From Candidatus Saccharimonadota bacterium (GTDB lineage Bacteria; Patescibacteriota; Gracilibacteria; Absconditabacterales; Absconditicoccaceae): a DNA stretch of 32,000 nt. The stretch's first letter is position 1. Each line of letters opens with the position of its first letter. The DNA lies in the NCBI GenBank assembly GCA_000503875.1, contig CP006913.1, positions 600,001 to 632,000 of the forward strand. The letters run 5' to 3'. The position numbers and the translations under genes are program-made. This document shows, piece by piece, positions 3,394-26,618 of the stretch. The notes beneath the pieces were generated by a model, which saw nothing but the letters and a program-made list of their open reading frames with translations, did no database searches and was not told the DNA's origin.

Positions 3394-3826
3394 AAAAAAG
3401 CGCTTCAGTATTACGAAGCGCTTTTAAAAATCATTTCATTTTAATATTGAAAATGAGTTCCTTATCAAGAATAGGTTTAAACTCCTCTCCTGCCTCGAAC
3501 ATATCTTCATCGCCATTACGACAATACCAATTAACTGTCGAATTTTCTGGTAATAATTCCAAAATTTCAAGTATCATCTTCGATGACGAAGAATTGAAAT
3601 AAACAAACTCGAAATGAAAAGTAACAGTCTGATTTGGAATAGTTTCAAAATACTCTTTCAAACGACTAATTATAGGCTGATAAAATGCCTTTGCGTCTTC
3701 AGGCATAGAATGCCCTCCCATATTAAAAACTTTTGCTAAGAAATCAAATCTAACCCAAGGAGTATCCGGCCTATTACCAGAAGTATCTGATTTCTCTTCA
3801 ATAATAAATAAGGTATCTGTCTCCAT
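3359..3826 (-). CDS. DUF1987 / SiaC-like small regulatory protein, paralog 1. The conserved domain ends at 3434. An in-frame TGA at 3431-3433 is followed by a 23-codon tail ending at TAA 3359-3361 under code 25.
   Basis: Starts at ATG 3826. Motifs are 'TPWVRFDF..GGHSMPEDAKAFYQPIISRLKEYF' and 'FVYFNSSSSKMILEILELL..VNWYC..GDEDM'. The paralog at 3958..4326 ends at the equivalent residue with TAA. Confidence 0.75.
3397..3424. terminator. Bidirectional rho-independent terminator between convergent genes
   Basis: The 10-nt arms 'aaagcgcttc' and 'gaagcgcttt' (8-nt loop) are flanked by an A-run on the left and a T-run on the right. Confidence 0.6.
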
Positions 3827-3874
3827 AACAAATATATTTTTAGGTTTTTAGTTTCCTTTTTGTTTTATACCACT

Positions 3875-3902
3875 ACCATAATCTTTTCCTTGGAAAAGTC
3901 AA
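3875..3902 (-). promoter_or_regulatory. Promoter of DUF1987 paralog 1, with a perfect 16-bp palindrome in the spacer
   Basis: On the minus strand, TTGACT (3902-3897), a 16-nt spacer, then TATGGT (3880-3875). The palindrome 'cttttccttggaaaag' lies at 3883-3898. Confidence 0.5.
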
Positions 3903-3917
3903 TTATTGATTTTTTTT

Positions 3918-3947
3918 AAAAAAACCACTCATAATTAATGAGGGTTT
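3918..3947 (-). terminator. Terminator of DUF1987 paralog 2
   Basis: The minus strand reads 'aaaccctcattaattatgagtggttttttt', an imperfect stem followed by a T-run, directly after the TAA at 3958-3960. Confidence 0.45.
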
Positions 3948-3957
3948 AAACAGATAG

Positions 3958-4326
3958 TTAAACTAATTCAATAAAATTAAATTTTATTTTGTTTTTAGTC
4001 ATTTCAGAATAATCAACACCTGCGTCCAACATATCATTATCATCCTCATAATAATACCAATTAATCTGACTATTTTCTTTCGGTAATAAATCAAATATTT
4101 CCAATAATTCTTTAGCAGAAGCCGTATTAAAATAGTCTAGTTTCATTTCAAATACTGTATTTTTTGCGGGATTTTCTAAATAGTTTTTCAGATCTTCAAG
4201 TATCGGATCATAAAATTTTTTTGGATCTTCAGGTAATGATCTACCTTTTATAACGAAGACACCCGTTTGAAAGTTAAAATCAATTAATGGCGTCCTTTCG
4301 CCTTCTTCTATTCTTATTTTTTCCAT
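3958..4326 (-). CDS. DUF1987 / SiaC-like small regulatory protein, paralog 2
   Basis: An intact 122-aa ORF from ATG to TAA. Motifs are 'TPLIDFNFQTGVFVIKGRSLPEDPKKFYDPILEDLKNYL' and 'LDYFNTASAKELLEIFDLL..INWYYYEDDNDM'. Confidence 0.85.
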   Translation of the reverse strand: MEKIRIEEGERTPLIDFNFQTGVFVIKGRSLPEDPKKFYDPILEDLKNYLENPAKNTVFEMKLDYFNTASAKELLEIFDLLPKENSQINWYYYEDDNDMLDAGVDYSEMTKNKIKFNFIELV

Positions 4327-4509: not shown

Positions 4510-5157
4510 ATGAAAAACAAACTCAAATCAGCTATATACAAAGCAGGAATAGGAGCAAGCGTGCTTGCGGGTTTTTTGTTAACAAGTAAAGATGCTTTGG
4601 CTCAAAATATAGCAAGTAATCAGAAGAATAAACCTCAAATAGCGAATTCCAATATAAATACACTCAAAGTAGATCCTTTCGATCGAGTAAAATGATATGT
4701 AAACACTTCAGATCCTGTGGAAGTTGCTCACTATGACCTTCTTCTCAAAACCGAAAAGACACAAAAAGAATCACATATTTTAGGACTAAAAGTCGCTCTT
4801 CTCGCGCTTTACAACGATACAACAATTCCTCCACAAGATAAAAAAGCATTAGCTTTAATTATTTTTGAACAATGAGTAAATTTATCTCCAGGAACAAAAA
4901 ACAGAGAATTTTACGCAGAAAAATATATGCAAAGGTTAGAAAATGATCAAAACTTTTTTGATCTTTGTGTGAAATTTGGAGAAATGCAGTGAAATCTAAT
5001 GGCTGAAATAGCTAATTCAGAATCAATTAAAATATATAAAGAATGAGAACAAATAAGAAAAGAATGAGAACAAATAAGAAAAGAATGAGAACAAATAAGA
5101 AAAGAAATCGCTCTCCTTGAACAAATTTTAGATGCATTTCAAAAAGCCAACAAATAA
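4510..5157 (+). CDS. Secreted hypothetical protein (215 aa) with a C-terminal (EGEQIRK)x3 repeat
   Basis: Starts at ATG 4510 and ends at TAA 5155-5157. It has 6 in-frame TGA and I checked every codon. It has a signal peptide, 'MKNKLKSAIYKAGIGASVLAGFLLTSKDALAQ'. Confidence 0.7.
5041..5103 (+). repeat. Three perfect tandem copies of a 21-bp unit inside the CDS
   Basis: The unit 'gaatgagaacaaataagaaaa' occurs at 5041-5061, 5062-5082 and 5083-5103. Each unit carries one TGA. Confidence 0.9.
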
Positions 5158-5167
5158 TATCATTTTT

Positions 5168-5196
5168 TTGACAAAACAACATAAAAAAGATATAAT
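5168..5196 (+). promoter_or_regulatory. Perfect consensus sigma70 promoter
   Basis: TTGACA (5168-5173), a 17-nt spacer, then TATAAT (5191-5196), 30 nt upstream of ATG 5226. Confidence 0.7.
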
Positions 5197-5225
5197 TTGT
5201 ATGAATTATATCTTTTTTTATACTT

Positions 5226-7481
5226 ATGCCTCCAGAAACAGAAAAACCAATACTACCTCCAGTCGATTCTCAAGAAAAAGTTAGAGAATGACAACAAAAT
5301 AAAGAAGAAAAAACTTCTGATATTTTTGCCGTACAAAAAGAAAGTATTCTCAAAAATCCAGAATTTCAAGGATTAGAAAAAGAAACAGAAAACACAATAA
5401 ACAAAATACTTACTGATTACCAAAATACAAACAGCACCGAAGAAGAAAAAACAAAAAACCAAGAAATAATGAAATTTTTAAATATCGATAATAATCTAGA
5501 AAAAGTATTTAAAGAATACTCAGAAAATATTTTCAAAGGGAAAACCCTTATTACAAAAAAAATGAGTTTAAAAAGAGAGACTTGAATAATTAAGGATATA
5601 ATAGAAAAAAATTATAAAAAAGATACTCAAGAACAAAATCAAGAATGAATCCAACAAAATCAAGAATGAATCCAAGAAAATCAAAAGGATTTAGAAAAAA
5701 GAAAAGAATTATTTAAAAATATAAAACCTGAATATGAAAATCTTCAAAAGAAAAACCCTATTTCAATAGATAAAAATTCTCCAGAATATAAAAAGCTACA
5801 AGATAATAAAGAACTAAAAGAAAGTTTTGGTAGTAAATTTGAAGACTTCATTACCTACCAATACGTAGCAAGCAAAATAGCAGAGGAAGTACAAAAAGAT
5901 CCTGAGAAAAAGATCTCCAAGGAAAATTTCGATTTCATCCAAAGCTTCAATGCTATTGCCAAAGAATATGGACAAAAAGAAATAGATACCAAATGACGAA
6001 TTCCTGAAGAAACATTAACAAGATCTATTTCTGACTTTACCAATCATCCAAACACTTCTGCGGTTTTAGAAAAAAATGAAAAAGTTGCCAATTATATCAG
6101 CGAAACCCAAGATACCATCAAAATACCTAATGAAAAATTTATAGAAACCGATAGTATCCAGAAACAAACATTGAAGTTTTATCAAAAAGATATCCAAAAA
6201 GATATAAACAAAAAATATGCAAACACCTATGAGAAGCTTTTTGATAAGCAAGGAAATAAGGTCGAAGAAGAACGAAAAAAGTTAAACCAAGAAGATCAAA
6301 AAGATATCCAAACAATAATAAAAAAATATACAGAAAAAATGACTTCAGAATTAAATACATCTCTACAAAAGTTAGTAGCAAGCAAGACTATTGCATGATG
6401 TACAAACGAATTTGTAAGATATTTCAATTTCAATAAACAAGAAAACAACTACGGAGATATAGGATTAAATACCGACAAAATCAATATTGAGAACAACACA
6501 TTACAAACGACTATGAATTTCAATGGATCAAAAACAACGTTCGATTACAATCTCAATAATGGAAGTATAAAATACTCAGATTTTTTACATATTGATGAAA
6601 AAACAGTAAATTTAGGAACCAATAAGTTTACAGACTTTCCTATCAATTTTCCAAGCATTCATGATATACAAGATCAAGCATTTCAAAAGATAATCAATTC
6701 AGAAAATATCAGCAAAGATTTAAACGAAAGTAATAGTTTAGAAGATTTTTATCAAAGATACTCAGATACTATAGGAAACGTAGATATCAAAAATCAAGAA
6801 TCTCCTTATATCAAAATTGTAATAGAACGCACACTTCAAAAAAACAAAGTACTTGAAAAAGCAAATAAATTTATCACAACATTTAATAAATCAAAAGCTA
6901 ATTATGATAGCATCGAAGATAAACAAATAGTAGATCTCTATAAAATACTAGATACAAGCTTAGATAGTTATTCTATTAATGAAATTAAAAACTTTGACAA
7001 TAATTTAGATAGGCTACAAAAAGAAATAGCCCAAACACAACAACCAAACAATCCAAACACAGATCCTGTTCTAAATACACTCTTTAATCCAGAGAAACAA
7101 GAAAAAGATCAGAAAGAATCATACAAAACAGAAAAAGAAGTAGCGGTATGACCAAGTATGACAGAATTTTTTAGAGCCATTGCAGAACCAAATAGTGACG
7201 ATCATATAATAGATAATCATCTTTTTAGCAGAATCTTAGATAAACGGGAAAAGAACGAATCAGTTAATATAAGTAAAGAATCAAATACAAAAGATAAAAA
7301 TAATAAAGAAAATGAAAGTAAAATATTAAGTATCGAGAATAATTCATATATAGATCTTTTGGCTAGATGTACAAAAATCCAAGATAAGCCATCAATCGCA
7401 GAGTTAGATAATGATGCTTTACGAGAAAACCCTCACCCTTCTCAGATTCAACAAATAACTCCAAATCAAAACATTTCTTAA
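5226..7481 (+). CDS. Large K/E/Q/N-rich low-complexity hypothetical protein (751 aa) with no signal peptide
   Basis: Starts at ATG 5226 and ends at TAA 7479-7481. ORF-track pieces 6171..6398, 6513..7151 and 7158..7481 share its frame. I translated 5226-6170 codon by codon and only TGA interrupts it. It contains a short repeat, 'QNQEGIQQNQEGIQENQ' (about 5636-5680). Confidence 0.7.
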
Positions 7482-8290: not shown

Positions 8291-9310
8291 ATGCTCCTTA
8301 CCCTCAACTGCTGAAGTTCCTCGATAAAATATGCTATCTTTGATGATAAGCTAAATTGTTTAACAAAATGAACACGTGAAAATATCAAAGATCATCAAAA
8401 AGAGCTTCAAAGCATCATCAAAAAACTCAAATTAGACAAAAATAACGAGAAACTCATAATTGCTCATCGTATAGTCCACGGATGACAGATTTTCACCAAA
8501 TCAACGATCATAACTAGCAAAAACATCAAGAAATTGAAATCTCTAAATACATTAGCTCCCCTTCACAATCCTATCCAGACCAAATGCATCAAATTTTGTT
8601 TAAAGCTCTTTCCAAAATCCCAAAATATTGCAGTTTTTGACACTGCTTTTTTCCAATGACTCAAGCCAGAACACTATCTCTATGCGCTCCCAAGCGATCG
8701 ACACAAAACCTATAATATCAGAAAATACGGTTTCCATGGAATATCTCATCACTATCTTATCCAAGAAACTATCAAAAAATTCCATACAAAAAATCTGAAA
8801 ATTATTACTTGTCATCTAGGAAATGGTGCAAGTATCACGGCTTCAAAGAACGGACTACCAATCACGACGTCTATGGGATTTACACCTACGGGAGGTGTGG
8901 TGATGGGAACCAGATGCGGCGATATCGATCCAGCAATTATCCCTTACATGATGCACCAGAAAAAACTTTCGATATCAGACATTACCAAAATTATCACTTC
9001 CCAAAGCGGACTCCTCGCTTTGTCCGGAAAAACCAATGATATGAAAACATTATTAGAGAGACAGAAAAAAGATCCCAAAGCGAAGTTGGCAATCCAGATT
9101 TTTATCAATCGTATCGTAGAATATATCTGATCATACATTGCCCTAATGAACGGCGCGGATGTGATCGTTTTTTCATGAGCTATAGGTTACAGATCTGCAT
9201 TTATTCGCAATCAAATCAAAAAACATTTCACTTATCTCCCAAACATAAAATTTCTCACCCTAGAAACCAACGAAGAACTTATGATGGCCAAAGAAGCACA
9301 AAAAGGATAA
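8291..9310 (+). CDS. Short acetate/propionate-kinase family paralog (339 aa)
   Basis: Starts at ATG 8291 and ends at TAA 9308-9310. It is in frame with ORF 8873..9130, and I translated 8291-8872 and 9131-9310. Motifs are 'LNC(TGA=G)SSSIKY', 'HRIVHGG', 'LAPLHNP', 'VFDTAF', 'YGFHGISH', 'MGTRCGDIDP' and 'ETNEELMMA'. Confidence 0.85.
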
Positions 9311-9318
9311 AAGAAAAA

Positions 9319-9348
9319 ACCACTGATAAATAATCAGCGGTCTTTTTT
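9319..9348. terminator. Bidirectional terminator shared by 8291..9310 (+) and 9457..9642 (-)
   Basis: The stem 'accactga' / 'tcagcggt' has one mismatch. It is preceded by an A-run and followed by 'cttttttat'. Confidence 0.5.
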
Positions 9349-9456
9349 ATATTGTACGTTTAATACAATCTTTTTTCCAAATCTCTATGAGATTACAGAT
9401 ACAATAATAAGTATAATCAGGAGAAAATATTATTACTACCCAATATACTTAAAGAA

Positions 9457-9642
9457 CTATTCCCAAGAATCATCTAATTGATTCTCAAAGGAAACAAGCT
9501 TATCAGTCGAAACAAATCGATGATTTTTTCTCATCCAATCATACCAATCGAATGATTCTTTTTCTTGTGCTTGTGTTCTTTGTTTCTGCGAAGCTTGGTT
9601 TTTCTTTAACCAACTACTTCTTCTTCTCATTTTTTTAACCAT
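9457..9642 (-). CDS. Small basic hypothetical protein (61 aa)
   Basis: ATG 9642 is in frame with ORF 9457..9729 and the stop is TAG 9457-9459. The TTG start given in the track lies upstream of the predicted transcription start. No family was recognised. Confidence 0.4.
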   Translation of the reverse strand: MVKKMRRRSSWLKKNQASQKQRTQAQEKESFDWYDWMRKNHRFVSTDKLVSFENQLDDSWE

Positions 9643-9728
9643 AAAAAATATAATTAATTTTTGTCCTCGATCTTTTATTTTTAAGATCTCGGTGCTTATT
9701 TTTTTGCTACATACAACGTAGCAAGGCA

Positions 9729-9756
9729 ATTATAATCTTTTAAAATACCTTTTCAA
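9729..9756 (-). promoter_or_regulatory. Promoter of the 61-aa gene
   Basis: On the minus strand, TTGAAA (9756-9751), a 16-nt spacer, then TATAAT (9734-9729). A 7-7-7 inverted repeat, 'ttgctac..gtagcaa', at 9704-9724 spans the expected transcription start. Confidence 0.45.
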
Positions 9757-9761
9757 GGACA

Positions 9762-9790
9762 AAAAAATCCCCACATAGGTAGGGATTTTA
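9762..9790 (-). terminator. recA terminator
   Basis: The minus strand reads 'aaaatccct acctatgt ggggattttttt', about 30 nt after the recA TAA. Confidence 0.55.
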
Positions 9791-9820
9791 ATGGTTACTT
9801 TCACTTTATTTTATCTTATT

Positions 9821-10912
9821 TTATTCCAATTCAGCAGTAGCTTCACTAATTTCAGCATTTTCTATATCAATTTCATCTTCAGCAGCTTGTAAAGCATCAT
9901 CATCCAAGACTTTTTTACCCATTCTTATTTCTTTGATTTTACCTTGGATATCTTTTTCGATAGAATTTCTAAGTTTTTCGTCAGTTTCAAGAAGTTGTAT
10001 AAATTTTTCTTTTCCTTGAATTTTTTGACCACCAATAGTATAAAATGCTCATGATCTCGTAGCTAATTTAAGGATACTAGCTGCTTCAACCAAATCAGCA
10101 ATATGATCATATCCCATCTTCCATCTTACAGGAAGTTCTGCTGTCTTAAATGGAGCGAATATTTTGTTTTTTGCAACTTTGATTTTTGCATAATAACCAA
10201 CTTGTTCTTTATCATCCATTATTTTTTCTCATTTTCTAATTTCTATTCTTTGAGAAGCAAAAAATTTGAGTGCATTACCTCCAGATGTTGTTTCTGGATT
10301 ACCAAACATTACTCATATTTTCATACGAATTTGATTGATAAATACACAGGTAGTACCACTTTTTGCTAATACTGAAGCTAATTTTCTAAGTCATTGAGAC
10401 ATCATTCTTGCTTGAAGTCACATATAGCTATCTCCCATATCTCATTCTACTTCAGCTCTAGGAACTAAAGCAGCTACTGAATCTATAACAATCAATTTAA
10501 CAGCTCCAGATTTTGCTAATTCTTCTGCTATTTGTAATGCTTGTTCTCCATGATCAGGCTGAGAAAGAAATAAGTTTTCTGTATCAACACCCAATACTCT
10601 TGCATAGTGAGGATCAAGCGCATGTTCAGCATCAATAAAAGCCGCTACTTGTCATCTTTTTTGTATTTCTGCGATAGCGTGAAGTGCTATTGTTGTTTTA
10701 CCAGAAGATTCTGGACCATAAATTTCTACAACTCTTCATTCTGGATATCAACCACCCAAAATAAGATCTAAAACATACGATCAACTATGAAATGTACTAA
10801 CCATTCCAACGTTTGCATTTTCTCCCATTCTCATAATGGCTCATTTTCCGAAGTGCTTTTCAATGGTTTTGAGTGCTTCGGTCAACTCCGGTTTGTTTTT
10901 CTGTAAGGTCAT
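9821..10912 (-). CDS. recA: Recombinase RecA (363 aa)
   Basis: I translated the full gene, from ATG 10912 to TAA 9821-9823. It has 11 in-frame TGA. Motifs are '[12 protein letters not shown]', '[10 protein letters not shown]', '[17 protein letters not shown](TGA)DMGDSYMG(TGA)LQARMMSQ' and '[10 protein letters not shown]'. Confidence 0.97.
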
Positions 10913-11001
10913 ACTATATATATAGAGTGTAAAACTAAGAAATGACTAAGAGAAGGTAAACGCAGAGACGTTTCAAATCTTCTCATTCATCGTCACAAAG
11001 A

Positions 11002-11029
11002 ATTTTATTGTTCTTTTTCAAAAAATCAA
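11002..11029 (-). promoter_or_regulatory. Candidate recA promoter
   Basis: On the minus strand, TTGATT (11029-11024), a 16-nt spacer, then TAAAAT (11007-11002). Confidence 0.4.
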
Positions 11030-11063
11030 GAGATTTTTTAGTAGTCTTGAACTAGCATATTGT

Positions 11064-11116
11064 ATTTTGTCAAAAATTACTGTTATTTTGTCAAAAAAGA
11101 CTTGATTTTGTCAAAA
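11064..11116. promoter_or_regulatory. Three phased direct copies of the 12-mer ATTTTGTCAAAA in the recA-lexA divergent intergenic region
   Basis: Exact copies lie at 11064-11075, 11085-11096 and 11105-11116, spaced 21 and 20 bp apart. The core TTTTG-T-CAAAA is a palindrome. The third copy overlaps the lexA promoter (TTGATT 11102-11107, TATATA 11124-11129). Confidence 0.5.
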
Positions 11117-11171
11117 CATTTTATATATATAAGGTGTAAATAATAAAAAATTTATTTATTAAATATTTCTC

Positions 11172-11795
11172 ATGCTCAAAAAACAACTTCTGGATGAAAT
11201 CCAAAGAGCACTCATTGCTTTCTTCAAAAAAAACACGGATAACGAAAGCATCACTCTTAGAGAAATTGCTGCTGCTATCGGAGTAAGCCATCCACAAACT
11301 GTTCTCAATAAACTCAATCAACTTGTTCTTAAATGATATTTCATCAAAGATGAAGCTGGATATCATCTCATTAGAGAAAGTATTACTGATCAACGAAACG
11401 ATGTTATTCAACTTCCTATTTATGGATTTGCACAATGCGGAAATCAAGGTAAAAAAATTCTTGACGAATATACCCAAGAAAGACTCCCTGTCACACCAGC
11501 AATGCTTGGTATAAAAGATCCTTCTAGATGTTTTTTCGTCAGAGCAAAAGGAAATAGTATGGAACCAAAAATCCAAGATGGAGACTTAGTTCTAGTTCAA
11601 CAACAAGATAATTATGATCAGAATGAATATGTATTTGTGGTGCACAACGATCTTCCAAAGCTCAAGAAAGTTGTCAAACAAGAAGATAAACGATATCTAG
11701 AATCCGTGAATAGATTCTTTGACAAGATGGAAATCAGTAAATTCGATGAGACCAAAATTGTAGGAGTGATCAAAAAAGTAATTAAAAATTTCTAA
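11172..11795 (+). CDS. lexA: LexA-type repressor (winged HTH plus S24 peptidase, 207 aa)
   Basis: Starts at ATG 11172, in frame with ORF 11502..11795, with one in-frame TGA. N-terminal 'ITLREIAAAIGVSHPQTVLNKLNQLVLKGYF'. 'FAQCG' is a possible Cys-Gly cleavage site, as in UmuD. It has the 'RAKGNSMEP' Ser nucleophile and 'LPKLKK' Lys. It is divergent from recA. Confidence 0.85.
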
Positions 11796-11842
11796 AGTAG
11801 TCGCCGAGATTTCTTGTCTTCGAAATATTTTAGAAATAAACA

Positions 11843-11869
11843 AAAATCCCCACAAAGGGGATTTTTTTT
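11843..11869. terminator. Bidirectional terminator between lexA (+) and the NlpC/P60 gene (-)
   Basis: The sequence is 'aaaatcccc acaaa ggggatttt' followed by a T-run, with an A-run on the other side. Confidence 0.6.
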
Positions 11870-12920
11870 ACGCTGCTTGATCCAAGATATTTTCTTTAGG
11901 TCAATTATAAGCCATTAATTGATCATAATCAACATGTCAAACATACAAATCTGACTTATGCTTTTTCTTCTTTTCTTCTTCGAGAGAAACTTTTCTTTCG
12001 GTTACTCAACTTACTCCATTCGATTCAATAATAGTTATTTTCCCAGAAGCATAATCCACTTCCTTAACAAATGCTACATGATGAATACGATAAGTATCTC
12101 CATCTTTTTTTATCTTTGGAATAGGTCCAACAGAAAAATTATACTTAGGATTTTTACTATCCCAAAATATCAGATCACCAGGCTTTACTTCAACCGCTCA
12201 AGTTAACGCGTTTCATTCTTCTTTAACAAGTTTTTCTGTCTTTAAATTATTAAACATTGCTCTTCATTCAGCTCACATTTCTTTAAGTCAGATCTGACGT
12301 AACGCATAAACAACCAATCATGAACAATCCAATCCTTTTTTCAAACTTTCTCTTCCTCATCGTTGATATTTTACATTATTTGTTTGATCATATTTTAAAA
12401 TTTTATCTAACATAGCCAAGAGTTTTTCTTGTTTAGATCATTTCTCCGCTTCAATGGTCTCTTGGATATCTTGATCTACTTGCTTTTGTTCTGCGACAAT
12501 TTTTGAATTATCAATAGGAGTATCATTTGCCGATAAACCAACTTCTTTTCTCAAATCACTCAATTTATCTGAAAGGGATTTTGCATCTTCTGCATCAATT
12601 TTTGCTATTTTATCTTTGACTGCATCCAATTTATCCATTGTCTCTTTTTCCAAAACTCTTTTCAAAATCATACCCAAGAGTACCTTATCTTTGATTCAAT
12701 CCAAAACACCTTCATGAGTAAGATAATCCTCTACTGTTCATGTTTCTGATAATATCAATCATGGCAAAGAACCACTTTCTTGTTGAAGTTTAGTAAAATA
12801 TTCTTTAGCAAAATCCTTTTTCAATTGCAAAAGTTCATCATCTACCTCAGGCTCTTCCTTGTTTTCTAACTCATCATCATCTTGTTCCTTTTCCCCTACT
12901 TCTTCTGCTTCTTTTGTCAT
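11868..12920 (-). CDS. NlpC/P60 (C40) cell-wall peptidase with a ~190-aa acidic coiled-coil N-terminal extension and no signal peptide (350 aa)
   Basis: I translated the full gene, from ATG 12920 to TAA 11868-11870. The catalytic motifs are 'GLDCSGLVVYALRQ' and 'YRIHHVAFV'. The N terminus is 'MTKEAEEVGEKEQDDDELENKEEPEVDDE'. Confidence 0.85.
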
Positions 12921-12942
12921 AACAATAAATTATAAATAAAAA

Positions 12943-15900
12943 TTAAGCTATTTTTTCTATTAAATCTGTAGCAATATTTTCTGGATATCACATAGCAATT
13001 AGATAACTTTTCATTTCTTGTTCTTTAAATATTCAAGATTCATCGATATATTGTTTCTCTTTTATATCAAGAAGTTGATATTTAACTTCTCATCAATCAA
13101 GGCTATAATGTAAATTTATATCTTTTGTAGCTTCAAGCCTAGAAAGAGATTCTTGTAAATCTTGTTCTACTTCCTTCATTTGTTTATAATTAATAAGTCT
13201 TTTAAAATGGATTGAAATCTGATTTCATTCTTTCTTCGTCGTCAAATCATCAAAGTTATTTATAGACATTCTTTGAGCGGTCGCAAACTTAATCAACGCT
13301 GATTTCTGATCATCGCTCATAGTTGGCCAATCTTTTTGGATTTTTTCTTCCAATACTCCTTTATCCATTTTTTCTATTTCAGCGAATTGTTTTTTCTCTT
13401 CATCAGATGCACCGTCAAAAAGTTCACCATAACCAACATATCATAGATAGCAAAGAAGCGCTACTCAGGACAATCTAAGTCAGGCTCCTTTCAAAAAAGT
13501 TAATGCTTCAGCTCAAAATGCGGCATATTCTCAAGCTTTTAAAATACGAATACCATCTCTCGCCATTTTAAAAACCCCATAACTTCACTTTCCAACTGAT
13601 TGTAAAAATGACCAAGAATCTCTAATTGGTGACATCATATATTTAGCAAATCAACTAAGAGAACCTGTCTTAATTGCATAGAATCCATCTAAAGCAAAAA
13701 GTCCTGCACCAATACCCGCTCCTCATAATGACTGGAATTTTCCATCCTTAACCGTCAATCCATCAGAGATCAACATAACTGGACCAACCAATGGTGTTAA
13801 ATATCCAAATCCTTCGGCAATAGTACGAACAAATGATTCATTTCCTTCTGGATGAGAAAGTTTCTCCAACATATCGCTTCCCATCATAATCAACGGAAAT
13901 CCTTTAAATAAGGTCTTAAGAATTTCTGGAGAATGCCTTCCAATAGTTTTTATATTATCGAAGAATGCCTTTGCATCATCTACATTATTCAAAGCAAATT
14001 TAACTTCATCTGCATACTCTACCATACCAGAAAGTTGTTTTCCTTTTGAAAATCTTCTAAAGAAATTTCTTACATCATTAAGCAAAGCATCCGATTGTAA
14101 CATTTTTCCTTGGAGTTTAGAAAATTCCTTCATTTTACCAATCAATTCCATTTCATACGGAAACTTAGACCATGGAAGATTAACATTTTTCCCGAAAAAC
14201 TTTTTCCATGTTCAAAAGGAATCTTCAGCAAAAGCTAGGGATTTATTCATATTGGCGTCTATAATATTTCCTGCTGCAGATTTTACTTTATTTAAATTTT
14301 TTCCCCAATGAATACTTGTTTTTAATTCTGTAAGAACAGCATCAAATCATTGACTTTTCAATGCTGATTCAATTTCTGGAAATGTTTTTTTGGTACTCAT
14401 AATATCAAAAATCGCAAGATTTTTTTTCATTGTTCCAACAACATCATCCAAAATACTAGCTCATCCAACAGTTTTTATTTCTTTTAGAATTCACGTATTT
14501 GATAACCCATCTTCTAATTGTTTAAACACCTGTAATTCTTTTTCAAAATTTCACCAAACTCCTCCTTTTCGATATGCAGCAGTTTTTCAGATATCTCCTC
14601 ATGTTCTTTGAAGGAAAAGAGCTCTCATTCATTCTCCAGCCAAATATCCTGCATGGGCTGCAACATTCCAAAACCATCAACCACGCCTATACATCATTCC
14701 CCAAAGCGCCATCTTCGAATCTACATCTAATTTTTTATTTTGTTCTTTAATATATCAGGTTAGGTCTTCTACCGACATAGAAGTAAAGGTTGTTTTCATA
14801 ATATTAGAAACCAATCAAACTGATCCTATACCAACGTTTAATACTGCTTTTCACGAAGGTAATACAACACTATCTATAATAATATCTTTCCATGAAATTA
14901 ATCATTCGTTTTTCATTCTTATCAAAAGATCAAAGATTCCCTTTGCAGGCATAGCAACCAAAGAGAAAAATTCTCAAAGGGTATCATATGTTCATTCTCC
15001 ATGATAAGCATCTTGCATTTTTTGTCATTGATTTTTTACATACGATTTAGGATCTCGTTCTTGACTCCATTCTGTAAATACTTTTTTAAATTTTTCTTTA
15101 TCAAGTTTCTTTCCAAATTTCTTTTCGAAAAAACTAAATAAACCATTTTCCATTTTATCATGATATATTTCTTTCTCTTTATCAGCCCAATCAGCAACGG
15201 TTTCTTTAGCTGTTTCCAATTTATCCTCAATTTTTTCAACAATATCTTCCACCTTCAAAGTATCTATATTAGCAATCAGATTTTTCAAATCTTTACCAAC
15301 AAACCAACCAACAACAGTAAGTCAAACCGTTCCTATAAGTCGTTCTTTAAATTTAGAAACAGGTTTTTTGTTTATATGTTTATCTACCAAATAATCATAA
15401 ACTGGTTGTGCAAGCCAACTTGACCATCGATGTTTTTCAAGATCTGTTTTCATAGTTTCAAAAGCTTTTTTCTTGGCTTCATCCAAAGTTGGAGCGACAG
15501 CAGCTACTCCTTTTTTCAATAAATCCAATGATTTTTTATGCTCAGATAATGTATCATGAAGCTCTTTTACTTTTTCCTGATCAACTTCATCAAGATGTTC
15601 TGCTTTTTGTTCAAGATGAGAAACTATCGTAATAATTGATTCTAAATCAGTTTCTTGCAAAGAAGTTTTTACCAATAGATTTTGTTTAAGTTGATTTAAA
15701 AGTTTTTTATCATGTTGAGACAAAACGGAAAATCACAAAAGACGATCTATATATTGAGAAAGATGTTGTTCTTGCTCCTGTTTCTTTGCTTCATCTGTAG
15801 AAGAAAATATGTTTTGTTTCAAGCTTTCTAAAGATTTTCTGGTATCTTGAAAAACAATCTTAGCATCAAGATTTTCTGTATTTTTGGGAGTACTTTCCTG

Positions 15901-15957
15901 ATTATTATCAGGAGATAGAAATTCCATTCACTTTTTTATAATATCTTGAAAGCTCAT
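12943..15957 (-). CDS. Very large membrane protein (1004 aa), family not recognised
   Basis: Runs from ATG 15957 to TAA 12943-12945. ORF pieces 13723..14151, 15025..15288, 15322..15723 and 15733..15927 share the frame, and I translated all the gaps. Only TGA interrupts it. The first ~200 aa are coiled coil. Hydrophobic Gly-rich segments follow ('LTVVGWFVG', 'VLNVGIGSVGLVSNIM', 'GGAGIGAGLFALDGFYAI', 'GVALLCYLGYVGYG'). There is no signal peptide. Confidence 0.8.
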
Positions 15958-15978
15958 AAAATCAATAAAAAAATAAAA

Positions 15979-18066
15979 TTAATCTTCTTTCTTATCGGGA
16001 GTAACTTTTATATCGGGAGTGAGTTTTTTATCAGCTCGCTCAGTGATATCTGTTACAAAAGGTTCTACTTGTGTATATAAATTATAACCAAGGAAACCAT
16101 ACATACCCAATTTTACTACCTCTGCAGAAGCTTTGACTATTTTAACAACTTTAGCAACTCTTCATCAAACTTTAACAGAAGATTTTAAAGCAAGACTAGC
16201 AGCATTTCATGCACCACCAGAGAATATTCATGCAACATCAAGAACAACAGATCCCAATCAAACTCATGCTCTGATCCATCTATCTTTTGTTGTTAAATCT
16301 CTCGATGCAATACTTCTATCAAATATAGCAGTTCAAATATCATATAATCAACCAACAAAAGGAAGAAGAGATACTCATAAATCACCTGCCTGCCATCATA
16401 TATCTTCCCATGATTCTGTTCAGTTAGCTCCTTCTATAGCTAATCCCAACAACATTCATCAAATCATAAATTTTCAAGCTTTAGTTTTTTTCATAAAATT
16501 ATCTATACCACTATTGATTTTCATTGTTTTTGTAACAAAAATCGAATGTTTTTCCAATTTCAGAATTTCTGCTTTAGTTAACTTAGATAATTCAAATCAA
16601 GCCGTTCATTCGGCTTTAGTTATTTTTTGATTTGATTGTTTTATAATTTCTTTTGCTTCTTTTTGATATTTTTCTTTATTTTTTGGATCATTTTTCGCTT
16701 TATTATCAAGATATTTTAGTTGTTCTTGTGTTTTTTTATGAATTTCTTTGATATCAGTTTCTATTGTATCAATTTTCTTTTTTGTTTGTTCAAATTTTTT
16801 AGATTCTGTTTCAACACCAGTTTTTATTTGTGCTATATTTTTTCAAAACTTTTTAGCAATAGAACTTCCATATTTCATTTCAAAATCTTTCAACGTCTTG
16901 ATTTTACCAGTTTCTAAATCATTAAGCATAGCTGTAATATCTTTTTTATAGAGAGAAAACTCTTGTTTCAAAGACGATTCTTTTAGCCACTTTGTCATCC
17001 AAGAATGAACATCTGATCTAATTTCTACTCATTTTCTCAGAGCTGCATCAGGATATTTAGTAAATGGTCATCAAGATAAAATATAGCTAAACCTTCCTTT
17101 CAATGTGTTTCATCTCCAAGTTCACATATCAAATTTAGGAACAAATCCCATTTGATACATTCTCATTAAAATATAAAATTCTGAATTTCATTCTTCTATC
17201 ATTTTTTCAACTTCTTGTGTAGCTCACACTTCTTCATCACTCAATTCAACATCTTCTGCCGGAACTTGATTTTGGCTATCTAAATTCTGATCTTTATTTT
17301 CATCCGAATCAACTGGCAAAATTTGTTCTTGATCATTTTTTTCTTCATTTTTTTTATCACTATTTTCATTTTCTTCTTTATTTTCAGCTTTTTCTTTCTC
17401 TTCTTTTTTTGCTTTTGCTTCATCTGTCCAGGGGAACCAAGATTTTACTTCTTTTGTCCATTCATCAGGAATAATTTTTCTACCAAGCCACAAGGCTCCA
17501 GTAGCTATCCCAGACCAAAGAATACCTTTGAAAATTCTTTTGAAAAAGCCAGGTTTTTCTTTTTTTCCTGATTCCTCATCTTCAGCATCTTGAGAAGATT
17601 CTTTGAGCTTTTTATCTGTCCACGATTTTATACTTTTTCCAATCAAAGGAAGATTTCCCAAAGTATTTGCTATTAATCATCCATAAAACATATTTGCAAA
17701 GAAACTAGGAGTTCATTCCTTTTCTTCTTCATCTGACTCTTTTTTTTCATCTTCTTTATCGTCTTTTTTTTCATCTTTTTTGAGTATTTCATCTTTTAAT
17801 CCATCAAGTTCTGTAGAAAAAGAATCTATTTTTTTTGAAAGATCTTCCAACTTTTTAATTTCATCTGCATTTTCATCTACATCTTTTTTAAGTTCATCGA
17901 GATGCTCAGTTATTTCTTCTTTTACCAAAGAAATATCTTCAGAAACTTCTTTCTGTTCTTTTTGACGTTTATCAGCATCTACCTGCTGTTTTACCTCAGC
18001 AAGATGCTCCTCAATTGTTTTAACTCTTTTTTCAAAACATTCTATTTTTTTAATATTATTTGTCAT
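15979..18066 (-). CDS. Large membrane protein (695 aa) with an acidic coiled-coil N terminus and a Gly-zipper, PT-TG-like C terminus; family not recognised
   Basis: Runs from ATG 18066 to TAA 15979-15981. ORF pieces 17224..17661 and 17713..18078 share the frame, and I translated 15979-17223. Hydrophobic segments include 'GILWSGIATGALWLG', 'FMIGGMLLGLAIEGANG' and 'DLGVSLLPFVGGLYDIGTAIFDRSIASRDLTTKDRWIRAGVGLGSVVLDVAGIFSGGAG'. The plus-strand ORF 16133..16630 is its antisense shadow. Confidence 0.8.
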
Positions 18067-18127
18067 TAGAAAACACAATACATATAAAGCTTTCTAATTA
18101 TAATCCAAACACCTCTAAAAAACCAAA

Positions 18128-18152
18128 AAATCTGCCCTTTCCCAGCAGATTT
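18128..18152 (-). terminator. Terminator after the deaminase-sufS unit, upstream of the large-protein operon
   Basis: The stem 'aaatctgc' / 'gcagattt' has a 9-nt loop. On the minus strand it is followed by 'tttttggtttttt'. Confidence 0.5.
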
Positions 18153-18211
18153 TACTTGACATATTTTGTTAATATATTTTAAGAGAAAAAGTTGATTTAT
18201 TTATCAATTGA

Positions 18212-18423
18212 GCAATAAAAATAACAGAATAAAAGAACAAACAAATATATCATAAGTGAGCGCTTTATATTTTAGGCAGAAAAAACACATGGAGCCGATT
18301 TGTTTGTGTTTTTTGCCGTTAAAAAATATAAACAGCGAACGTTGATATATTGTTTATTATTAAAATCAAACTACAAACGGTGATATATTTGTTTATGAAT
18401 ATATTTTGTTTATTTTTTATTGT
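18212..18423. repeat. Structured intergenic element E1 (~212 nt): long imperfect terminal inverted repeats closing nested hairpins
   Basis: The left arm, 'GCAATAAAAATAACAGAATAAAAGAACAAACAAATATATCA', pairs imperfectly with the right arm, 'TGATATATTTGTTT..TTATTTTTTATTGT'. There is an inner hairpin at 18275-18317 (GGCAGAAAAAACACA..TGTGTTTTTTGCC). It shares its termini with E2. Confidence 0.5.
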
Positions 18424-18436
18424 GAAAATATATTGA

Positions 18437-21868: not shown

Positions 21869-22648
21869 ATGTTCAAAAAGATATTATTACTCTGAATTAT
21901 TATTACTAGTTTGATTTCTATTGTACGTTGAGATTATAAAGAGATTGTAACAACCGTACTCAATAACATCCAAACAACAAATGCCAATAAAACCGATCTC
22001 CAAAAAAGACAGACTTTTGAAAATTATATCCCAAAAATAAAAAGTTTAACATCAATAGATCAAAGAGTAAAAGACGCTTTGATAACGTATCTCAATGCAA
22101 AAATAGCAGAATTAGATGAAACGCTCAAAACAACAACATATGAGTCAAACATTACCAATATCGACAAAGCTTTGATTGAAAAATCTTGGCTCGAACGACA
22201 TAATACAGAAAGAAACAGTCTAGATCTGGCCTCATATACAATCAGCCCAGAACTCAACAATACCGCCCAAAACCGAGCCAATCATTTGGCTGAATTAAAT
22301 GATGCAACCCACAAAAGACTCTCAACGGATGGCTATTATAATTACGAAAGTATAAAATCACGATTTTCCGATTTATGAGTAACTTTTCCAAAAGAACAAA
22401 ATGGTGTTGCAAACTTTTCTGAAAATCTTGCTTACCAATATTTAAGCTGCAAAAAAGATGATTGTACTACAGAAGTATTAGCAGCACTCAAAAAATGCTA
22501 TGCATTTTTTATGAGTGAAAAAAGTTACAAATGACCTCATTATAGAGCGGTTATAAGTCCTTATTTCACCCAAATGGGATATGGAGTATCAAAAGTAGGA
22601 ACCAAAATCTTTATCGTAACTCACTACTCTGTAGATCTACTTCAATAA
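21869..22648 (+). CDS. Secreted CAP/SCP (PR-1-like, YkwD-type) domain protein (259 aa)
   Basis: Runs from ATG 21869 to TAA 22646-22648, in frame with ORF 22079..22378. I checked all codons. The signal or anchor is 'MFKKILLLGIIITSLISIV'. Motifs are 'WLERHNTERNS', 'LNNTAQNRANHL', 'HKRL', 'NFSENLAY' and 'GPHYRAVISPYFTQMGYGV'. Confidence 0.75.
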
Positions 22649-23824
22649 ATCATAAGTTTCTTTCGCAATCATATATTCTTCATTCGTAGGAACAACCATC
22701 AAAACAGCCTTAGATTCTGGTGTAGAAATTATTCTTTCTTCTCATCTAAAGTCATTTTTTGATTCATCCAAAGTAATACCTAACCATCCAAGTTTATCTG
22801 CAATCATTTTTCTAATATACGCAGAATTTTCCAAGGTACCAGCAGTCAAAACAACAGCATCGCATCCATTCAAAATCGCTGTATAAGAACCAATATATTT
22901 CACAATTTTATTTACATATACATCCAATGCCAAAGTTTCTTGTGTCTTACCAGCAATATGACCATCTTCAATATCTCTCATATCACTAGACACACCAGAA
23001 ATACCAAGTACTCCACTCTGCTTATTGAGCATATGATCAATTTCATCTATAGTCATATTTTCTTTTCTCATCAAAAAAGCAACAATAGCAGGATCTAAAT
23101 CACCTGATCTTGTACCCATAGTCAACCCTTCAAGCGGCGTAAATCCCATCGACGTATCAACTACTTTTCCACCCTTAATAGCAGAAACACTAGCTCCATT
23201 TCCTACGTGACAAACGATAATATTCATATCTTTGATATCTTTGCCCAAAATTTCAGCAGCTCTATACGATACATATTTATGAGAAGTACCATGAAATCCA
23301 TATCTTCTTACCTTATATTTTTCGTAATATTTATAGGGAATAGAATACATATATGCACTCGGTTCCATCGTTTGATGAAAAGAGGTATCAAATACTGCAA
23401 TATTTGGGATATTTGGTAAAACATCTTCTACTGCGTTAATTCCCATCAAATTTGCAGGATTATGAAGCGGTGCAATTTCACATAATTCATTGATTTTGGT
23501 TTTTGCATAATCATCTATTCTCGCAGAATTGACAAATTCTTCTCCACCATGAACTACTCTATGTCCAGCAGCATCAATTTCTTCCAATGAATTCAATACA
23601 CCATGAGTCGGATCAACCAATAATTCCAACACTTTTTTAAGTGCTATACTATGATTTTCCAAATCACCTTGAATTTCAACTTTACCAATCTTTCCTACAT
23701 GTTTGATAACAGTTCATTTTCCTATTTTATCAACCAATCATTTAGACAAAACATCTCATTCTGGCATAGATATCAATTGGTATTTCAACGACGAACTTCC
23801 TGCATTCAAAACTAATATTTTCAT
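22637..23824 (-). CDS. ackA: Acetate kinase (395 aa)
   Basis: Runs from ATG 23824 to TAG 22637-22639, in frame with ORF 22742..23662. Motifs are 'MKILVLNAGSSSLKYQL', 'GHRVVHGG', 'APLHNP', 'VFDTSFHQTM', 'YGFHGTSH', 'MGTRSGDLDP' and 'VVPTNEEYMIA'. Confidence 0.95.
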
Positions 23825-24566: not shown

Positions 24567-26618
24567 TTATGATACTCTAAATCAAACAAGCAAAATATCA
24601 TCAGTTTGATTTTCATCTGTTCCTATCATTTCTTCATATTGTTGGCTTATAAATAACTCTCTTTCTTCTACTGGTAAAGAAATAACTTTTTTTAGAAGTT
24701 CATAAAATCACTTTGATCATAGTTTTTTATCCGTTGCGGCAACAAATTGGTCAACCATTCCATCACTAAATAGAAATACTTCATCACCAGATTTAAGTTG
24801 ATATTGATGCGTTTCATAAGCAAAATTTGCTTTTTTATTTAATGATCATACATCTCAACGTGATGTAGAAATTAATTTTTCCAATTTTCCTTCTCTAAAA
24901 ATAATTATAGGCCTAGAAGAACTAGAATATTCAAGTTCACGAGTACTAGGATCATAAAAAACACACTCAACATCAATAGAGTCGTGCATTTTTTCAGAAG
25001 ATGCGGAATTTTTTGATTGTTCCTTAGTATTTTCCTGTATAAAGAAATGATCAAGTGAATTAATAATATCTGAAGGTTTATGTGCACATTCAAGAAATTG
25101 CTTCACTTTTGTTTGTCAAAGTATTGTCAAAAGGGATCAAGGAACACCATGCCCAGTACAATCAGCGACCATAAGCATTTTCTTTGTTGGAGAAGTAATA
25201 TCTTCAGGGTTTTTACGAGGAAGATCTGCAGAGAAATAGAAATCTCCACTTACAATATCTTTGGGTCTATAAAAAACAATAGAGGTATCACCAAATTGTT
25301 CTTTTACATCAATATTATTATACAAGAAATGATTTTGAAGCCTAGAAGCATAATTAATACTTGATGTAATCTGAGTATGTGATTTTTGAATTTGTTGTTT
25401 TTGAGCGTCTATTTCTTCGTTAGTAGCCTGCAATTCTTCGTAAGCCGTTTCCAATTCAACTTGTTTTTGGATGATTTCATCTCTTTGTCTAGCATTTTCA
25501 TCTCTTTGGGCAGTTATTATTGTATTTTTTCTTTTAAGTGTATATCAGACTCATGCTCAAGTTATTGCTGCACCAACAGCCAATAGTAATAACAACAAAG
25601 TAACTCTAGTTCTTTGTCTTTGGTTTTCAGCCTCTAATATATACTCACTTGTTTTATACTTAGTTTCTAATTCAAGTTGATCTTTTTTTGCTTTTTCAGT
25701 AAATCTTATATTAGAAACATCTACTTTTTGTTCAAGATAAGAATATGCCAAAGAATAATCCTTTATAGATATCGCCAAATCTTTCATAATATTTAAAATC
25801 ATATCTTGTAATTCAAGATTGTTAGATTCTTTTGCAAGCGTAATAGCTTCTTCATAAATCAAAAATGCTTGTTTATAATCTTTATCTGCAATTGAAAGAT
25901 CTGCTTCTGTTGTAAGTAAACAAATAGTTTCATAAGAAGAGCGAGGATACTCTTTTAAAAGTTTTTTTGCTTCAAAAAAATATGGTTCAGCAAGAGATGC
26001 TTTTCATACACCAATATAAGAATTAGCAAGACTACTATAAATAAGATATTTTATATAATAATCATCTCATAAAATTTCAGATCCTTTCTGCAAGATATCA
26101 ACAGCTTCCATTAGGAAAGGAATTGCTTTATCATAATGTATAGGTTGTTTTGAAGAATTTAAATAAGTTGATGCCAAATTATTTAAACTAAACAAAAGAT
26201 TCCTCTTATTTCAATTTTTTCTTGCAATATTTATTCCTTTCAAATGATAATCAATTGATAGAGAATCTTCTTTTATACAACTGTATACATTTCATAAATT
26301 ATCATAAATACCATACATATAAGGGTCTTCTCTACTCATTCATTTTTTCAGTAAAGAATCTCTTGTTGATAACAAAAGATCTATTGCTACATTATATTTT
26401 CATTCTCTAATATATTCATTAGCAATAACATTTATATCATTAGCATCACAAGTTGCTCCTGAAAAATTTAATTTCGAATCAGTTATAATAGGTGTAAATT
26501 GTAATTTATCGTTTTTCTTTGATTCAGAAAAATCTGGATTTTTACAATAATTTAATAAAACAAAAAGAGAACTTGCAACAATATATTTACAAGAATTTAA
26601 AAAAATTTTTGTTCACAC
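24567..26618 (-). CDS. TPR-repeat sensor, single TM, coiled coil and a PP2C (SpoIIE/RsbU-type) Ser/Thr phosphatase (~683 aa)
   Basis: ORF pieces 24855..25106, 25137..25454 and 25557..25862 share one frame, and I checked all triplets from 24567 to 26687. The stop is TAA 24567-24569. The start is uncertain, with no early ATG. GTG 26618 gives a lipoprotein-like leader, 'KIFLNSCKYIVASSLFVLLNYC'; TTG 26639 and TTG 26645 are alternatives. The TM segment is 'VTLLLLLLAVGAAITGAGVG'. PP2C motifs are 'SGDFYF', 'MVADCTGHGVPG(TGA)S', 'FLFSDG' and 'DDILLVGFRV'. Confidence 0.8.

Follow-up and report, generated by a model that had tools for sequence, protein, structure and literature searches.

The window analysed here, a stretch of 32,000 nucleotides (nt), belongs to candidate division SR1 bacterium RAAC1_SR1_1, whose genome is closed and uses genetic code 25 (UGA=Gly). 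On its minus strand lies an operon of three genes, encoding two giant proteins of 695 and 1004 amino acids (aa) and a peptidoglycan hydrolase of 350 aa, with intergenic gaps of 21 and 22 nt. This trio is a lineage-specific, rapidly diversifying operon of UGA-recoded Candidate Phyla Radiation (CPR) bacteria (SR1/Absconditabacteria). The rate of its divergence, the mosaic structure of its second gene and the modularity of its hydrolases point to a function in conflict or contact, and we tentatively read the operon, at somewhat less than an even chance, as an envelope-anchored scaffold or conduit that would deploy adaptor-tagged, Sec-independent cell-wall hydrolases against other cells. All three proteins are annotated as "hypothetical protein" in NCBI; their genes are as follows.

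15979..18066, minus strand: gene 1, encoding a 695-aa orphan helical protein, P148_SR1C00001G0571 (= P0011, 100% identical), with 26 UGA codons.
12943..15957, minus strand: gene 2, encoding a 1004-aa orphan helical protein, AHB41361.1 (= P0020), with 32 UGA codons.
11868..12920, minus strand: gene 3, encoding a 350-aa leaderless peptidoglycan hydrolase, AHB41360.1 (= P0023), with 14 UGA codons.

Under translation table 11, the genes are broken up into scattered short open reading frames (ORFs), and code 25 was therefore used. Treating UGA as a sense codon raised the summed length of all ORFs of at least 150 aa in the window from 2,811 to 12,216 aa, and 9 of the 11 UGA codons in the RecA gene lie opposite glycines of Escherichia coli RecA in an alignment. 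Both results support the code that the initial annotation of this region had assumed, and under that code the three co-oriented genes have the sizes and spacing that it had given. Many database entries of this lineage, including some in NCBI and ENA, were translated by code 4, with tryptophan in place of glycine at UGA (P0001–P0019 and others, compared with loci L001–L006). Such mistranslation puts W into Gly-rich motifs and weakens both profile searches and structure prediction. Since the code-4 entries corrupt exactly these motifs, the related loci (numbered L001 and onwards) were re-translated with code 25.

The gene order, with proteins of ~700 aa, ~1000 aa and ~325–350 aa, is conserved in at least 8 loci, which include the window, L003, L004, L005, L006, L012 and L001/L002. 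In L003, L004, L005, L006 and L012, the trio adjoins lexA-recA. In L001/L002, it lies between a gene for RNase J and a Wzy-type gene, with wholly different flanks, and the genes therefore move as a unit. The initial annotation had presumed that the three genes would be co-conserved in related genomes, and they are syntenic in close relatives, including one with different flanks. Pairwise identities to the window indicate that the trio evolves much faster than its flanks: LexA is 93–95% identical and RecA 88%, compared with 37–62% for the trio or, by part, 51–56% for the 695-aa protein, 30–56% for the body of the 1004-aa protein and 37–73% for the hydrolase. In L004, an IS91-family transposase, a CopG-like antitoxin and a Bro-N gene (9088-13286) are inserted between recA and the acetate kinase gene, which shows a local insertion of mobile DNA beside an otherwise stable locus.

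A mosaic structure was found in gene 2, whose product consists of a conserved head and a polymorphic body.

15343..15957, minus strand: head (aa 1-205), a conserved helical N-terminal domain, from alignment to relatives.
15295..15339, minus strand: short conserved hydrophobic run of 15 aa (aa 207-221, LIGTVGLTVVGWFVG), a candidate N-in membrane anchor at the head/body junction.
12946..15252, minus strand: body (aa 236-1004), type A allele, the polymorphic region that is cassette-replaced by type B.
13387-13827, minus strand: Gly-rich module (aa 711-857) within the body.
Within the body, minus strand: small C-terminal alpha/beta domain (about aa 900-1004), from the AlphaFold2 model.

The head is 69–83% identical to that of relatives, and in pairs of strains that share a head (94–100% identical), the bodies are only 16–29% identical. 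For example, P0004 and P0009 are 100% identical over aa 31-235 and 17–29% identical over the remaining ~770 aa, and P0003 and P0008 show the same pattern. At the DNA level, L005 and L006 are 97.4% identical up to codon ~236 of gene 2 and 99.1% identical from its stop codon on; between these matching flanks lie roughly 2.3 kb without detectable similarity, which are exactly the gene 2 body. Among 30 family pairs with similar heads, body identity was bimodal, at either 21–26% or 40–97%. Together with the sharp DNA breakpoints, this indicates two ancient body alleles, A (the window type) and B. The two types are still homologous (tblastn E = 5e-17), and both occur as intact ORFs in independent assemblies. 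No silent cassette of the alternative body was found in the window.

The breakpoint falls just past the conserved hydrophobic run at aa 207-221, which is the best candidate for an anchor in this protein. Its N-terminal flank is rich in lysine and arginine (+4) and its C-terminal flank is near-neutral (+1). In distant family members, homology begins at profile positions 202-260. An exhaustive profile search yielded at least 126 representatives of the 1004-aa family, of which about 75 are full length at 820–1190 aa. All five of the distant loci examined contain in-frame UGA as well, suggesting that the family is confined, as far as sampled, to UGA-recoded CPR bacteria. A word-indexed search returned about 10 homologues each for the 695-aa and the 1004-aa protein, and a scan of GTDB genomes by back-translated patterns returned a single locus.

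A second kind of exchange was detected in the hydrolases, where a constant N-terminal adaptor is joined to different catalytic domains. In the window, the two parts of gene 3 are the following.

12597..12848, minus strand: N-terminal helical adaptor (aa 25-108), fused to other catalytic domains in other strains.
12018..12374, minus strand: NlpC/P60-CHAP papain-like catalytic domain (aa 183-301), from Pfam and motifs.

Pfam profiles for NLPC_P60 (PF00877; 27.1 bits, cutoff 23) and CHAP (PF05257; 27.4 bits, cutoff 26) both match the protein, the latter at aa 183-301. The catalytic motifs, DCSG from aa 198 (Cys199) and HHVAF at about aa 280 (His281/282), are conserved in orthologues, and the Cys motif aligns with that of MepS/Spr. 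In an AlphaFold2 model based on a shallow alignment (mean pLDDT 54), helices over aa 26-180 precede the catalytic domain. The domain itself was modelled at pLDDT 70–84, and its best Foldseek matches were MepS/Spr (2k1g; probability 0.99, E = 0.01) and the CHAP domain of the phi812 hub (probability 0.97), none of them at E <= 0.001. On the profile matches and motifs, gene 3 is predicted to encode a true NlpC/P60-CHAP enzyme and peptidoglycan hydrolase, with a catalytic domain that is in itself ordinary. The initial annotation had described an intact Cys/His pair, an acidic N-terminal extension and no export signal; the motifs are in place, the N-terminal 175 aa carry a net charge of -20, and a signal peptide is absent from this and every other version of the hydrolase.

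The adaptor, about 60–85 aa long, was recognized by a match of aa ~25-81 to a protein of L001 (BLASTP E = 6e-8). It is fused to an NlpC/P60-CHAP domain in the window, L003 and L004, to Peptidase_M23 in L005/L006 (Pfam E = 8.8e-25), to YkuD_2 in L013 (E = 1.3e-35), to a Cys/His domain without a family match in L001/L013, and, in L014, to a domain that is weakly C39-like. Behind their giants, L001 and L013 have arrays of 3–4 peptidoglycan-active enzymes. In L014, two tandem paralogous adaptor-effector genes (15-2109) share about 35 aa in their interior (MFSKVSTKNELENLRTTIFNEIGGTELASTTTKESS), suggestive of recent duplication or recombination inside the effector array.

Constant N-terminal modules with C-terminal catalytic domains that vary among related strains are typical of polymorphic toxins. 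A constant targeting module with variable catalytic modules is reportedly the architecture of both secretion-system effectors and polymorphic toxins, as described by Zhang et al. in 2012. We rate the trio as a polymorphic effector-type locus. Its leaderless adaptor-plus-variable-enzyme logic resembles these systems, for which the context of PT-TG and of type VII secretion systems (T7SS) has been described (PMC13483458). Like Tae/Tlde1-type effectors of type VI secretion systems (T6SS), XVIPCD effectors of the Xanthomonas type IV secretion system (T4SS), LXG toxins of T7SSb and polymorphic toxin systems, the trio enzymes have no leader and combine a targeting module with interchangeable catalytic domains. 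The catalytic types are common to both (NlpC/P60-like amidases, M23 and YkuD-like L,D-transpeptidase folds), as are effector arrays, strain-level polymorphism and sharp recombination boundaries. Unlike these systems, the trio contains no LXG, WXG, MIX, PAAR or XVIPCD domain and no adjacent immunity gene, and no known T4SS, T6SS or T7SS component is encoded in the window. Its adaptor is N-terminal and belongs to no described family, and its candidate apparatus consists of two orphan helical giants, one of them itself polymorphic.

A helical N-terminus in front of a wall-cutting domain is also a feature of hydrolases that bacteria direct at their own wall. Self-directed wall remodelling is the main rival explanation, and one that we consider unlikely. 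The giants would then be a lineage-specific functional analogue of FtsEX-type regulators, positioning or activating a coiled-coil-tagged endopeptidase (PcsB, CwlO, RipC or EnvC-like) during growth, during division, or in opening the wall for pili at the attachment site. FtsEX-controlled hydrolases (PcsB, CwlO/RipC and EnvC) come in the same three catalytic flavours: CHAP, NlpC/P60 and M23. As in these systems, the trio hydrolase has a helical or coiled-coil N-terminal region, here of ~175 aa, followed by a CHAP/NlpC-P60 domain or, in L005/L006, an M23 domain, and it is genetically linked to membrane-associated partners. The operon also occupies a stable chromosomal site amid housekeeping genes, in an organism that makes peptidoglycan (PMC3812714). 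However, known FtsEX-partner hydrolases bear signal peptides, which gene 3 cannot encode, and neither the operon nor the window contains FtsE/FtsX or ABC genes. Nor would a core growth machine be expected at 37–56% identity where LexA stands at 94%, to swap a 770-aa body for an allele of 20% identity, or to exchange its catalytic chemistry between close strains. YkuD_2 and C39-like fusions, as well as multi-enzyme arrays, are foreign to FtsEX systems.

Leaderlessness applies to the whole trio. In-frame stops lie 4–10 codons upstream of each ATG, so there are no longer N-termini and no hidden signal peptide in any of the three proteins, in agreement with the initial annotation. This observation bears on a further explanation, in which the enzymes would never be exported: tethered by their adaptors to the heads of a host-contact or uptake structure, they would act in the cytoplasm on imported muropeptides, in scavenging rather than attack. 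We consider this very unlikely, as enzymes of the M23 and YkuD types usually work outside the cytoplasm, on polymeric peptidoglycan, the giants show no transporter homology in profile searches, and rapid exchange of catalytic domains is less expected of a catabolic role. It would nevertheless account for enzymes that are all leaderless without linked export machinery, and for the conserved heads of both giants, which must be cytoplasmic. Cytoplasmic NlpC/P60 muropeptide peptidases do exist, YkfC being an example. In addition, this lineage must obtain building blocks from its host (PMC8080830, PMC3812714).

Neither giant could be placed in a known family by profile or structure searches, an outcome in keeping with the initial annotation. 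Searches against Pfam, NCBIfam, PHROG, PADLOC and PDB-sequence profiles gave nothing significant beyond coiled-coil noise, and Foldseek of the 1004-aa model against PDB and BFVD gave no match at E <= 0.001. AlphaFold2 predicted the 1004-aa protein to be almost wholly helical, with a small C-terminal alpha/beta domain (mean pLDDT 54, shallow alignment); weak matches of this domain to BON or ring-building motifs (E = 0.4–3) were not used. The initial annotation had also called both proteins very large membrane proteins with several Gly-zipper-like segments. Gly-rich hydrophobic segments are indeed present in both, but they are weak, with a maximum Kyte-Doolittle hydropathy of 1.3–1.55 in a 19-aa window (usual cutoff 1.6), and are broken by Asp. 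A motif common to the two giants had been noted as well. In an hhalign comparison, the 695-aa and 1004-aa families aligned with a score of 49.2 (E = 8e-5, probability 61%), above reversed controls (29–30, E about 0.02), but E rose to 0.06 once both alignments were cropped to the C-terminal modules. Paralogy of the two is therefore suggestive and not robust to cropping, and we do not claim it.

A large helical protein followed by a leaderless hydrolase had initially been compared with phage tape-measure/hydrolase pairs and with the VirB6-like/hydrolase pairs of conjugative elements (ConG-CwlT, Orf15-Orf14). The operon could in principle be a relic of a phage tail module (tape-measure protein and tail lysin) or of a Gram-positive conjugative T4SS (VirB6-like protein and CwlT/Orf14-like hydrolase), but this reading is largely refuted, and we regard it as the least probable of those considered. 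Every feature of membership that could be checked failed, across profiles, folds, neighbours and hydropathy. No gene for VirB4, a coupling protein, a relaxase, an integrase, a capsid or a tail was found anywhere in the window, as the initial annotation had stated, and neither phage nor conjugation genes were found in related loci of up to 23 kb; a prophage beside the operon is absent from both. The giants and the adaptor do not occur in IMG/VR viral contigs and gave no tblastn match in 50,697 GenBank phages. Tape-measure fold matches were insignificant (BFVD TM <= 0.11), no tape-measure profile of Pfam matched, by hydropathy the giants are not polytopic like VirB6, having charged residues within their weak segments, and the chromosomal position, a stable housekeeping locus, is unchanged across diverged relatives.

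What likeness there is to such elements lies in the shared order of a large helical or hydrophobic protein and a leaderless NlpC/P60 or M23 hydrolase, in the Gly-rich hydrophobic stretches that tape-measure proteins also have within a long alpha-helical chain, and in the length and all-helical nature of the 1004-aa protein, which put it in the same gross class. PHROG matches were obtained for the peptidase (phrog_329, "minor tail protein", E = 1.5e-9) and for the 695-aa protein (phrog_4704, tape-measure protein, E = 8.5e-4), the latter within a coiled-coil stretch. Small T4SS_pilin (PF18895) genes were seen 7–8 kb upstream of the giant pair in two unrelated loci (L001 782-1794 and L007 477-869), a linkage that could be counted for a T4SS relic and that may be coincidental.

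The motif noted in both giants had initially been likened to PT-TG (PF14449), the pre-toxin module of polymorphic toxins. The product of gene 1 consists, in order, of an acidic coiled-coil head, hydrophobic segments, an acidic linker, a variable helical domain and a Gly-rich C-terminal module.

17479..17712, minus strand: aa 119-196, with two conserved Gly-rich hydrophobic segments (119-143 and 178-196), a candidate membrane anchor or membrane-associated region.
16057..16470, minus strand: aa 533-670, Gly-rich hydrophobic C-terminal module, from profile searches, hydropathy and hhalign.
16246-16383, minus strand: aa 562-607, PT-TG-like stretch below threshold, from the Pfam profile.

Compared with relatives, the head and anchor are 67–86% identical (76–86% in close relatives for aa 119-196), and the central domain is 27–30% identical. 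Both giants had been described as starting with long acidic coiled coils; this is true of the 695-aa protein (net charge -15 over aa 1-117) and not of the 1004-aa protein (net charge -3 over aa 1-205).

PT-TG matches were found at the same position in three of four members of the 695-aa family (E = 0.0067, 0.018 and 0.43), but all of them remained below the gathering score of 23.5 bits, at 15.5 in the window, 16.8 in L001 and 11 in L004. No match was found in the L003 member or in any member of the 1004-aa family. Where relatives read "SITGEGIAG" or "SISGKGIAG", the window protein reads "AIFDRSIAS" and is missing the TG dipeptide. The proposed resemblance is thus recurrent in the 695-aa family, and it extends neither to the TG of the window protein nor to the other giant. 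PT-TG itself has no known structure or function (PMC13483458).

Read at face value, these matches would make the 695-aa and perhaps the 1004-aa protein a PT-TG-type polymorphic toxin, with a helical trafficking N-terminus, a PT-TG linker, a short Gly-zipper C-terminus that inserts into membranes, and export by an undetected route resembling T7SS. The leaderless helical N-terminus would suit such a protein, relatives bear the string "SITGEGIAG-LSTGDRW", and some PT-TG proteins are known to carry about 300 unannotated aa at the N-terminus (PMC13483458). We nevertheless consider this highly improbable. No LXG, WXG, VgrG or FHA trafficking domain and no C-terminal toxin domain of Pfam was found in the 695-aa protein or its relatives, and the window contains neither EssC nor an immunity gene. 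A code-25-corrected C-terminal profile of the family, searched against 5.8 billion proteins, retrieved three family fragments only and no PT-TG proteins, which are concentrated in Bacillaceae (PMC13483458).

In the scaffold-or-conduit reading that we favour, the two giants would together form an envelope-anchored structure. Because they have no signal peptide, their heads start in the cytoplasm, where these conserved regions would recruit the adaptor-tagged enzyme. Each head would be followed by a short hydrophobic anchor and then by the large, fast-evolving body, ending in Gly-rich hydrophobic helices. The exposed polymorphic bodies may contact another cell, and the enzyme, exposed or exported without Sec, would cut peptidoglycan where the cells touch, most likely in the wall of a host, prey or competitor. 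Such contact or attack is in keeping with how the lineage lives: RAAC1 SR1, a monoderm, makes peptidoglycan and bears type IV pili (PMC3812714), and its relatives live as epibiotic predators, whose peptidoglycan hydrolases are thought to degrade the walls of their prey (PMC8080830).

Several observations weigh against this reading. Neither the operon nor the window encodes an ATPase, another energy source or a channel homologue. Of the "effector plus translocon" initially proposed, the effector half gained support (a conserved adaptor, swapped catalytic domains, no leaders, fast evolution), and the translocon half remains conjectural. No immunity gene follows the hydrolase, as there is no ORF between gene 3 and the convergent lexA, only a terminator. 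The weak hydrophobic segments allow no confident transmembrane call, the structure models of the 1004-aa protein and the peptidase are poor (both at the mean pLDDT of 54), and contact among the three proteins, like their topology, their export and the identity of the target wall, is something we infer. The distant 1004-family loci L007, L009 and L010 have no hydrolase downstream, and in L013, the chromosomal slot that holds the trio in L001 holds a 1401-aa giant unrelated to either family, ahead of a hydrolase array; the trio is therefore not an obligate unit. In L007 and L010/L011, all without a hydrolase, the 1004-family gene follows giants of 1326–1523 aa, which are related to each other and not to the 695-aa family; hmmsearch detected no likeness of the upstream giants of L007/L010 or of the 1401-aa protein of L013 to the 695-aa or 1004-aa family. 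In addition, one co-varying candidate host of RAAC1 SR1 is a member of the Tenericutes, which have no cell wall (PMC3812714). Fast evolution and allele swapping would also fit a role as phage receptor or surface antigen, apart from any delivery.

A more far-reaching form of this idea, which we regard as somewhat unlikely, is that the trio constitutes a categorically new, Sec-independent, contact-dependent delivery system peculiar to UGA-recoded CPR bacteria. In that case, the giants would be the machine, with host-facing bodies ending in membrane-inserting Gly-zipper helices, and the enzymes would be passed to the wall of the host or prey.

The limits of the operon were examined by a hairpin scan, which found 6 terminator-like hairpins in the region where 1.8 were expected. 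Terminators on both sides of the trio, the downstream one bidirectional, had been noted in the initial annotation and were recovered.

18127..18153, minus strand: upstream hairpin resembling an intrinsic terminator, with a 10-bp stem and a T-run.
11842..11866, minus strand: downstream terminator hairpin, immediately past gene 3 and shared with the convergent lexA.
18097..18102, minus strand: TATAAT, a -10-like hexamer and putative promoter element, read from the sequence 30 nt before the start codon of the 695-aa protein.

The stem of the downstream terminator is palindromic, and it is able to act in both directions. The TATAAT hexamer was not listed by a consensus promoter scan, and its -35 region is poor. 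The upstream hairpin closes a 370-nt non-coding stretch (18067-18436) downstream of the cysteine desulfurase gene, which thus ends in a terminator just 60 nt ahead of the operon start codon. This stretch contains an imperfect 24-nt inverted repeat (18266-18289 / 18305-18328) and gave no match in an Rfam search; it could be a leader, an attenuator or a small RNA.

The trio is surrounded by metabolic and housekeeping genes, namely recA, lexA, a cysteine desulfurase, a deaminase, two acetate kinases, a PduL-type phosphotransacylase, pflB/pflA/focA and alanine racemase, and the rest of the window encodes surface, regulatory or orphan proteins. Of the two acetate kinase genes, the one at 8291-9310 (plus strand) encodes, at 339 aa, a shorter protein than the one at 22637-23824 (minus strand), and it matches only positions 55-350 of the 392 in the Pfam profile. 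Since this shorter gene is conserved beside recA in L003, L004 and L005, it probably represents a diverged paralogue and not a pseudogene.

The divergent spacer between recA and lexA contains three exact copies of a near-palindromic 12-mer, ATTTTGTCAAAA, at 20–21-nt spacing (11064-11116), which occurs nowhere else in the 32 kb. It is kept in the same spacer of L003 (7141-7172), L004 (7430-7461), L005 (7315-7326), L006 (7520-7531) and L012 (7232-7263). We regard it as a candidate operator for LexA in SR1; it differs from the Gram-positive GAAC-N4-GTTC box (Cheo-box), for which no enrichment was found in the window. Control of the trio by the SOS response was considered and rejected, as the 12-mer, found only between recA and lexA, does not occur upstream of the trio.

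Other features of the window concern surface and regulatory proteins. Its left end (3-2933, plus strand) encodes the C-terminal part, ~900 aa, of a very large surface protein; this part contains PKD-like repeats, 12 glycines in a row and, at its end, a PG_binding_1 domain. Homologous giants of 1464–1607 aa occupy the same place in L003 and L005. Two tandem genes for SiaC-family phosphoproteins (3359-4326, minus strand), whose synteny extends to L003 and L005, belong to a partner-switching signalling module, as does a TPR-plus-SpoIIE (PP2C) phosphatase (24567-26339, minus strand) that has a hydrophobic segment in its centre. A second pair of conserved orphans (4510-7481, plus strand) consists of a 215-aa protein with a signal peptide and a triple "EGEQIRK" repeat, followed by a highly charged 751-aa protein without a Pfam match; proteins of like size are found at the same position in L003 and L005.

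A search of the literature found no description of the giant families or of the operon, and novelty appears to extend to the adaptor, both giant families, the A/B body polymorphism and the linkage among them. More generally, public protein databases systematically mistranslate these genomes, placing Trp for Gly and hiding Gly-rich motifs from profile searches. Searches for effectors in this lineage can use the adaptor as a handle. The giants carry signatures of molecular conflict, in accelerated divergence, in two ancient body alleles swapped as cassettes and in the swapping of catalytic domains beside them. Even if the proposed delivery function is wrong, the A/B body polymorphism still marks strong selection on the cell surface in an uncultured lineage. 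To explain how episymbionts and predators among the CPR/Patescibacteria, for example Vampirococcus and Absconditicoccus, physically breach their hosts, generic secreted hydrolases, haemolysins and type IV pili have been proposed. The operon is a concrete and testable candidate for this step, and if it does prove to be a delivery system with the giants as its machine, it would be central to the way in which such epibiotic predators break into their victims.

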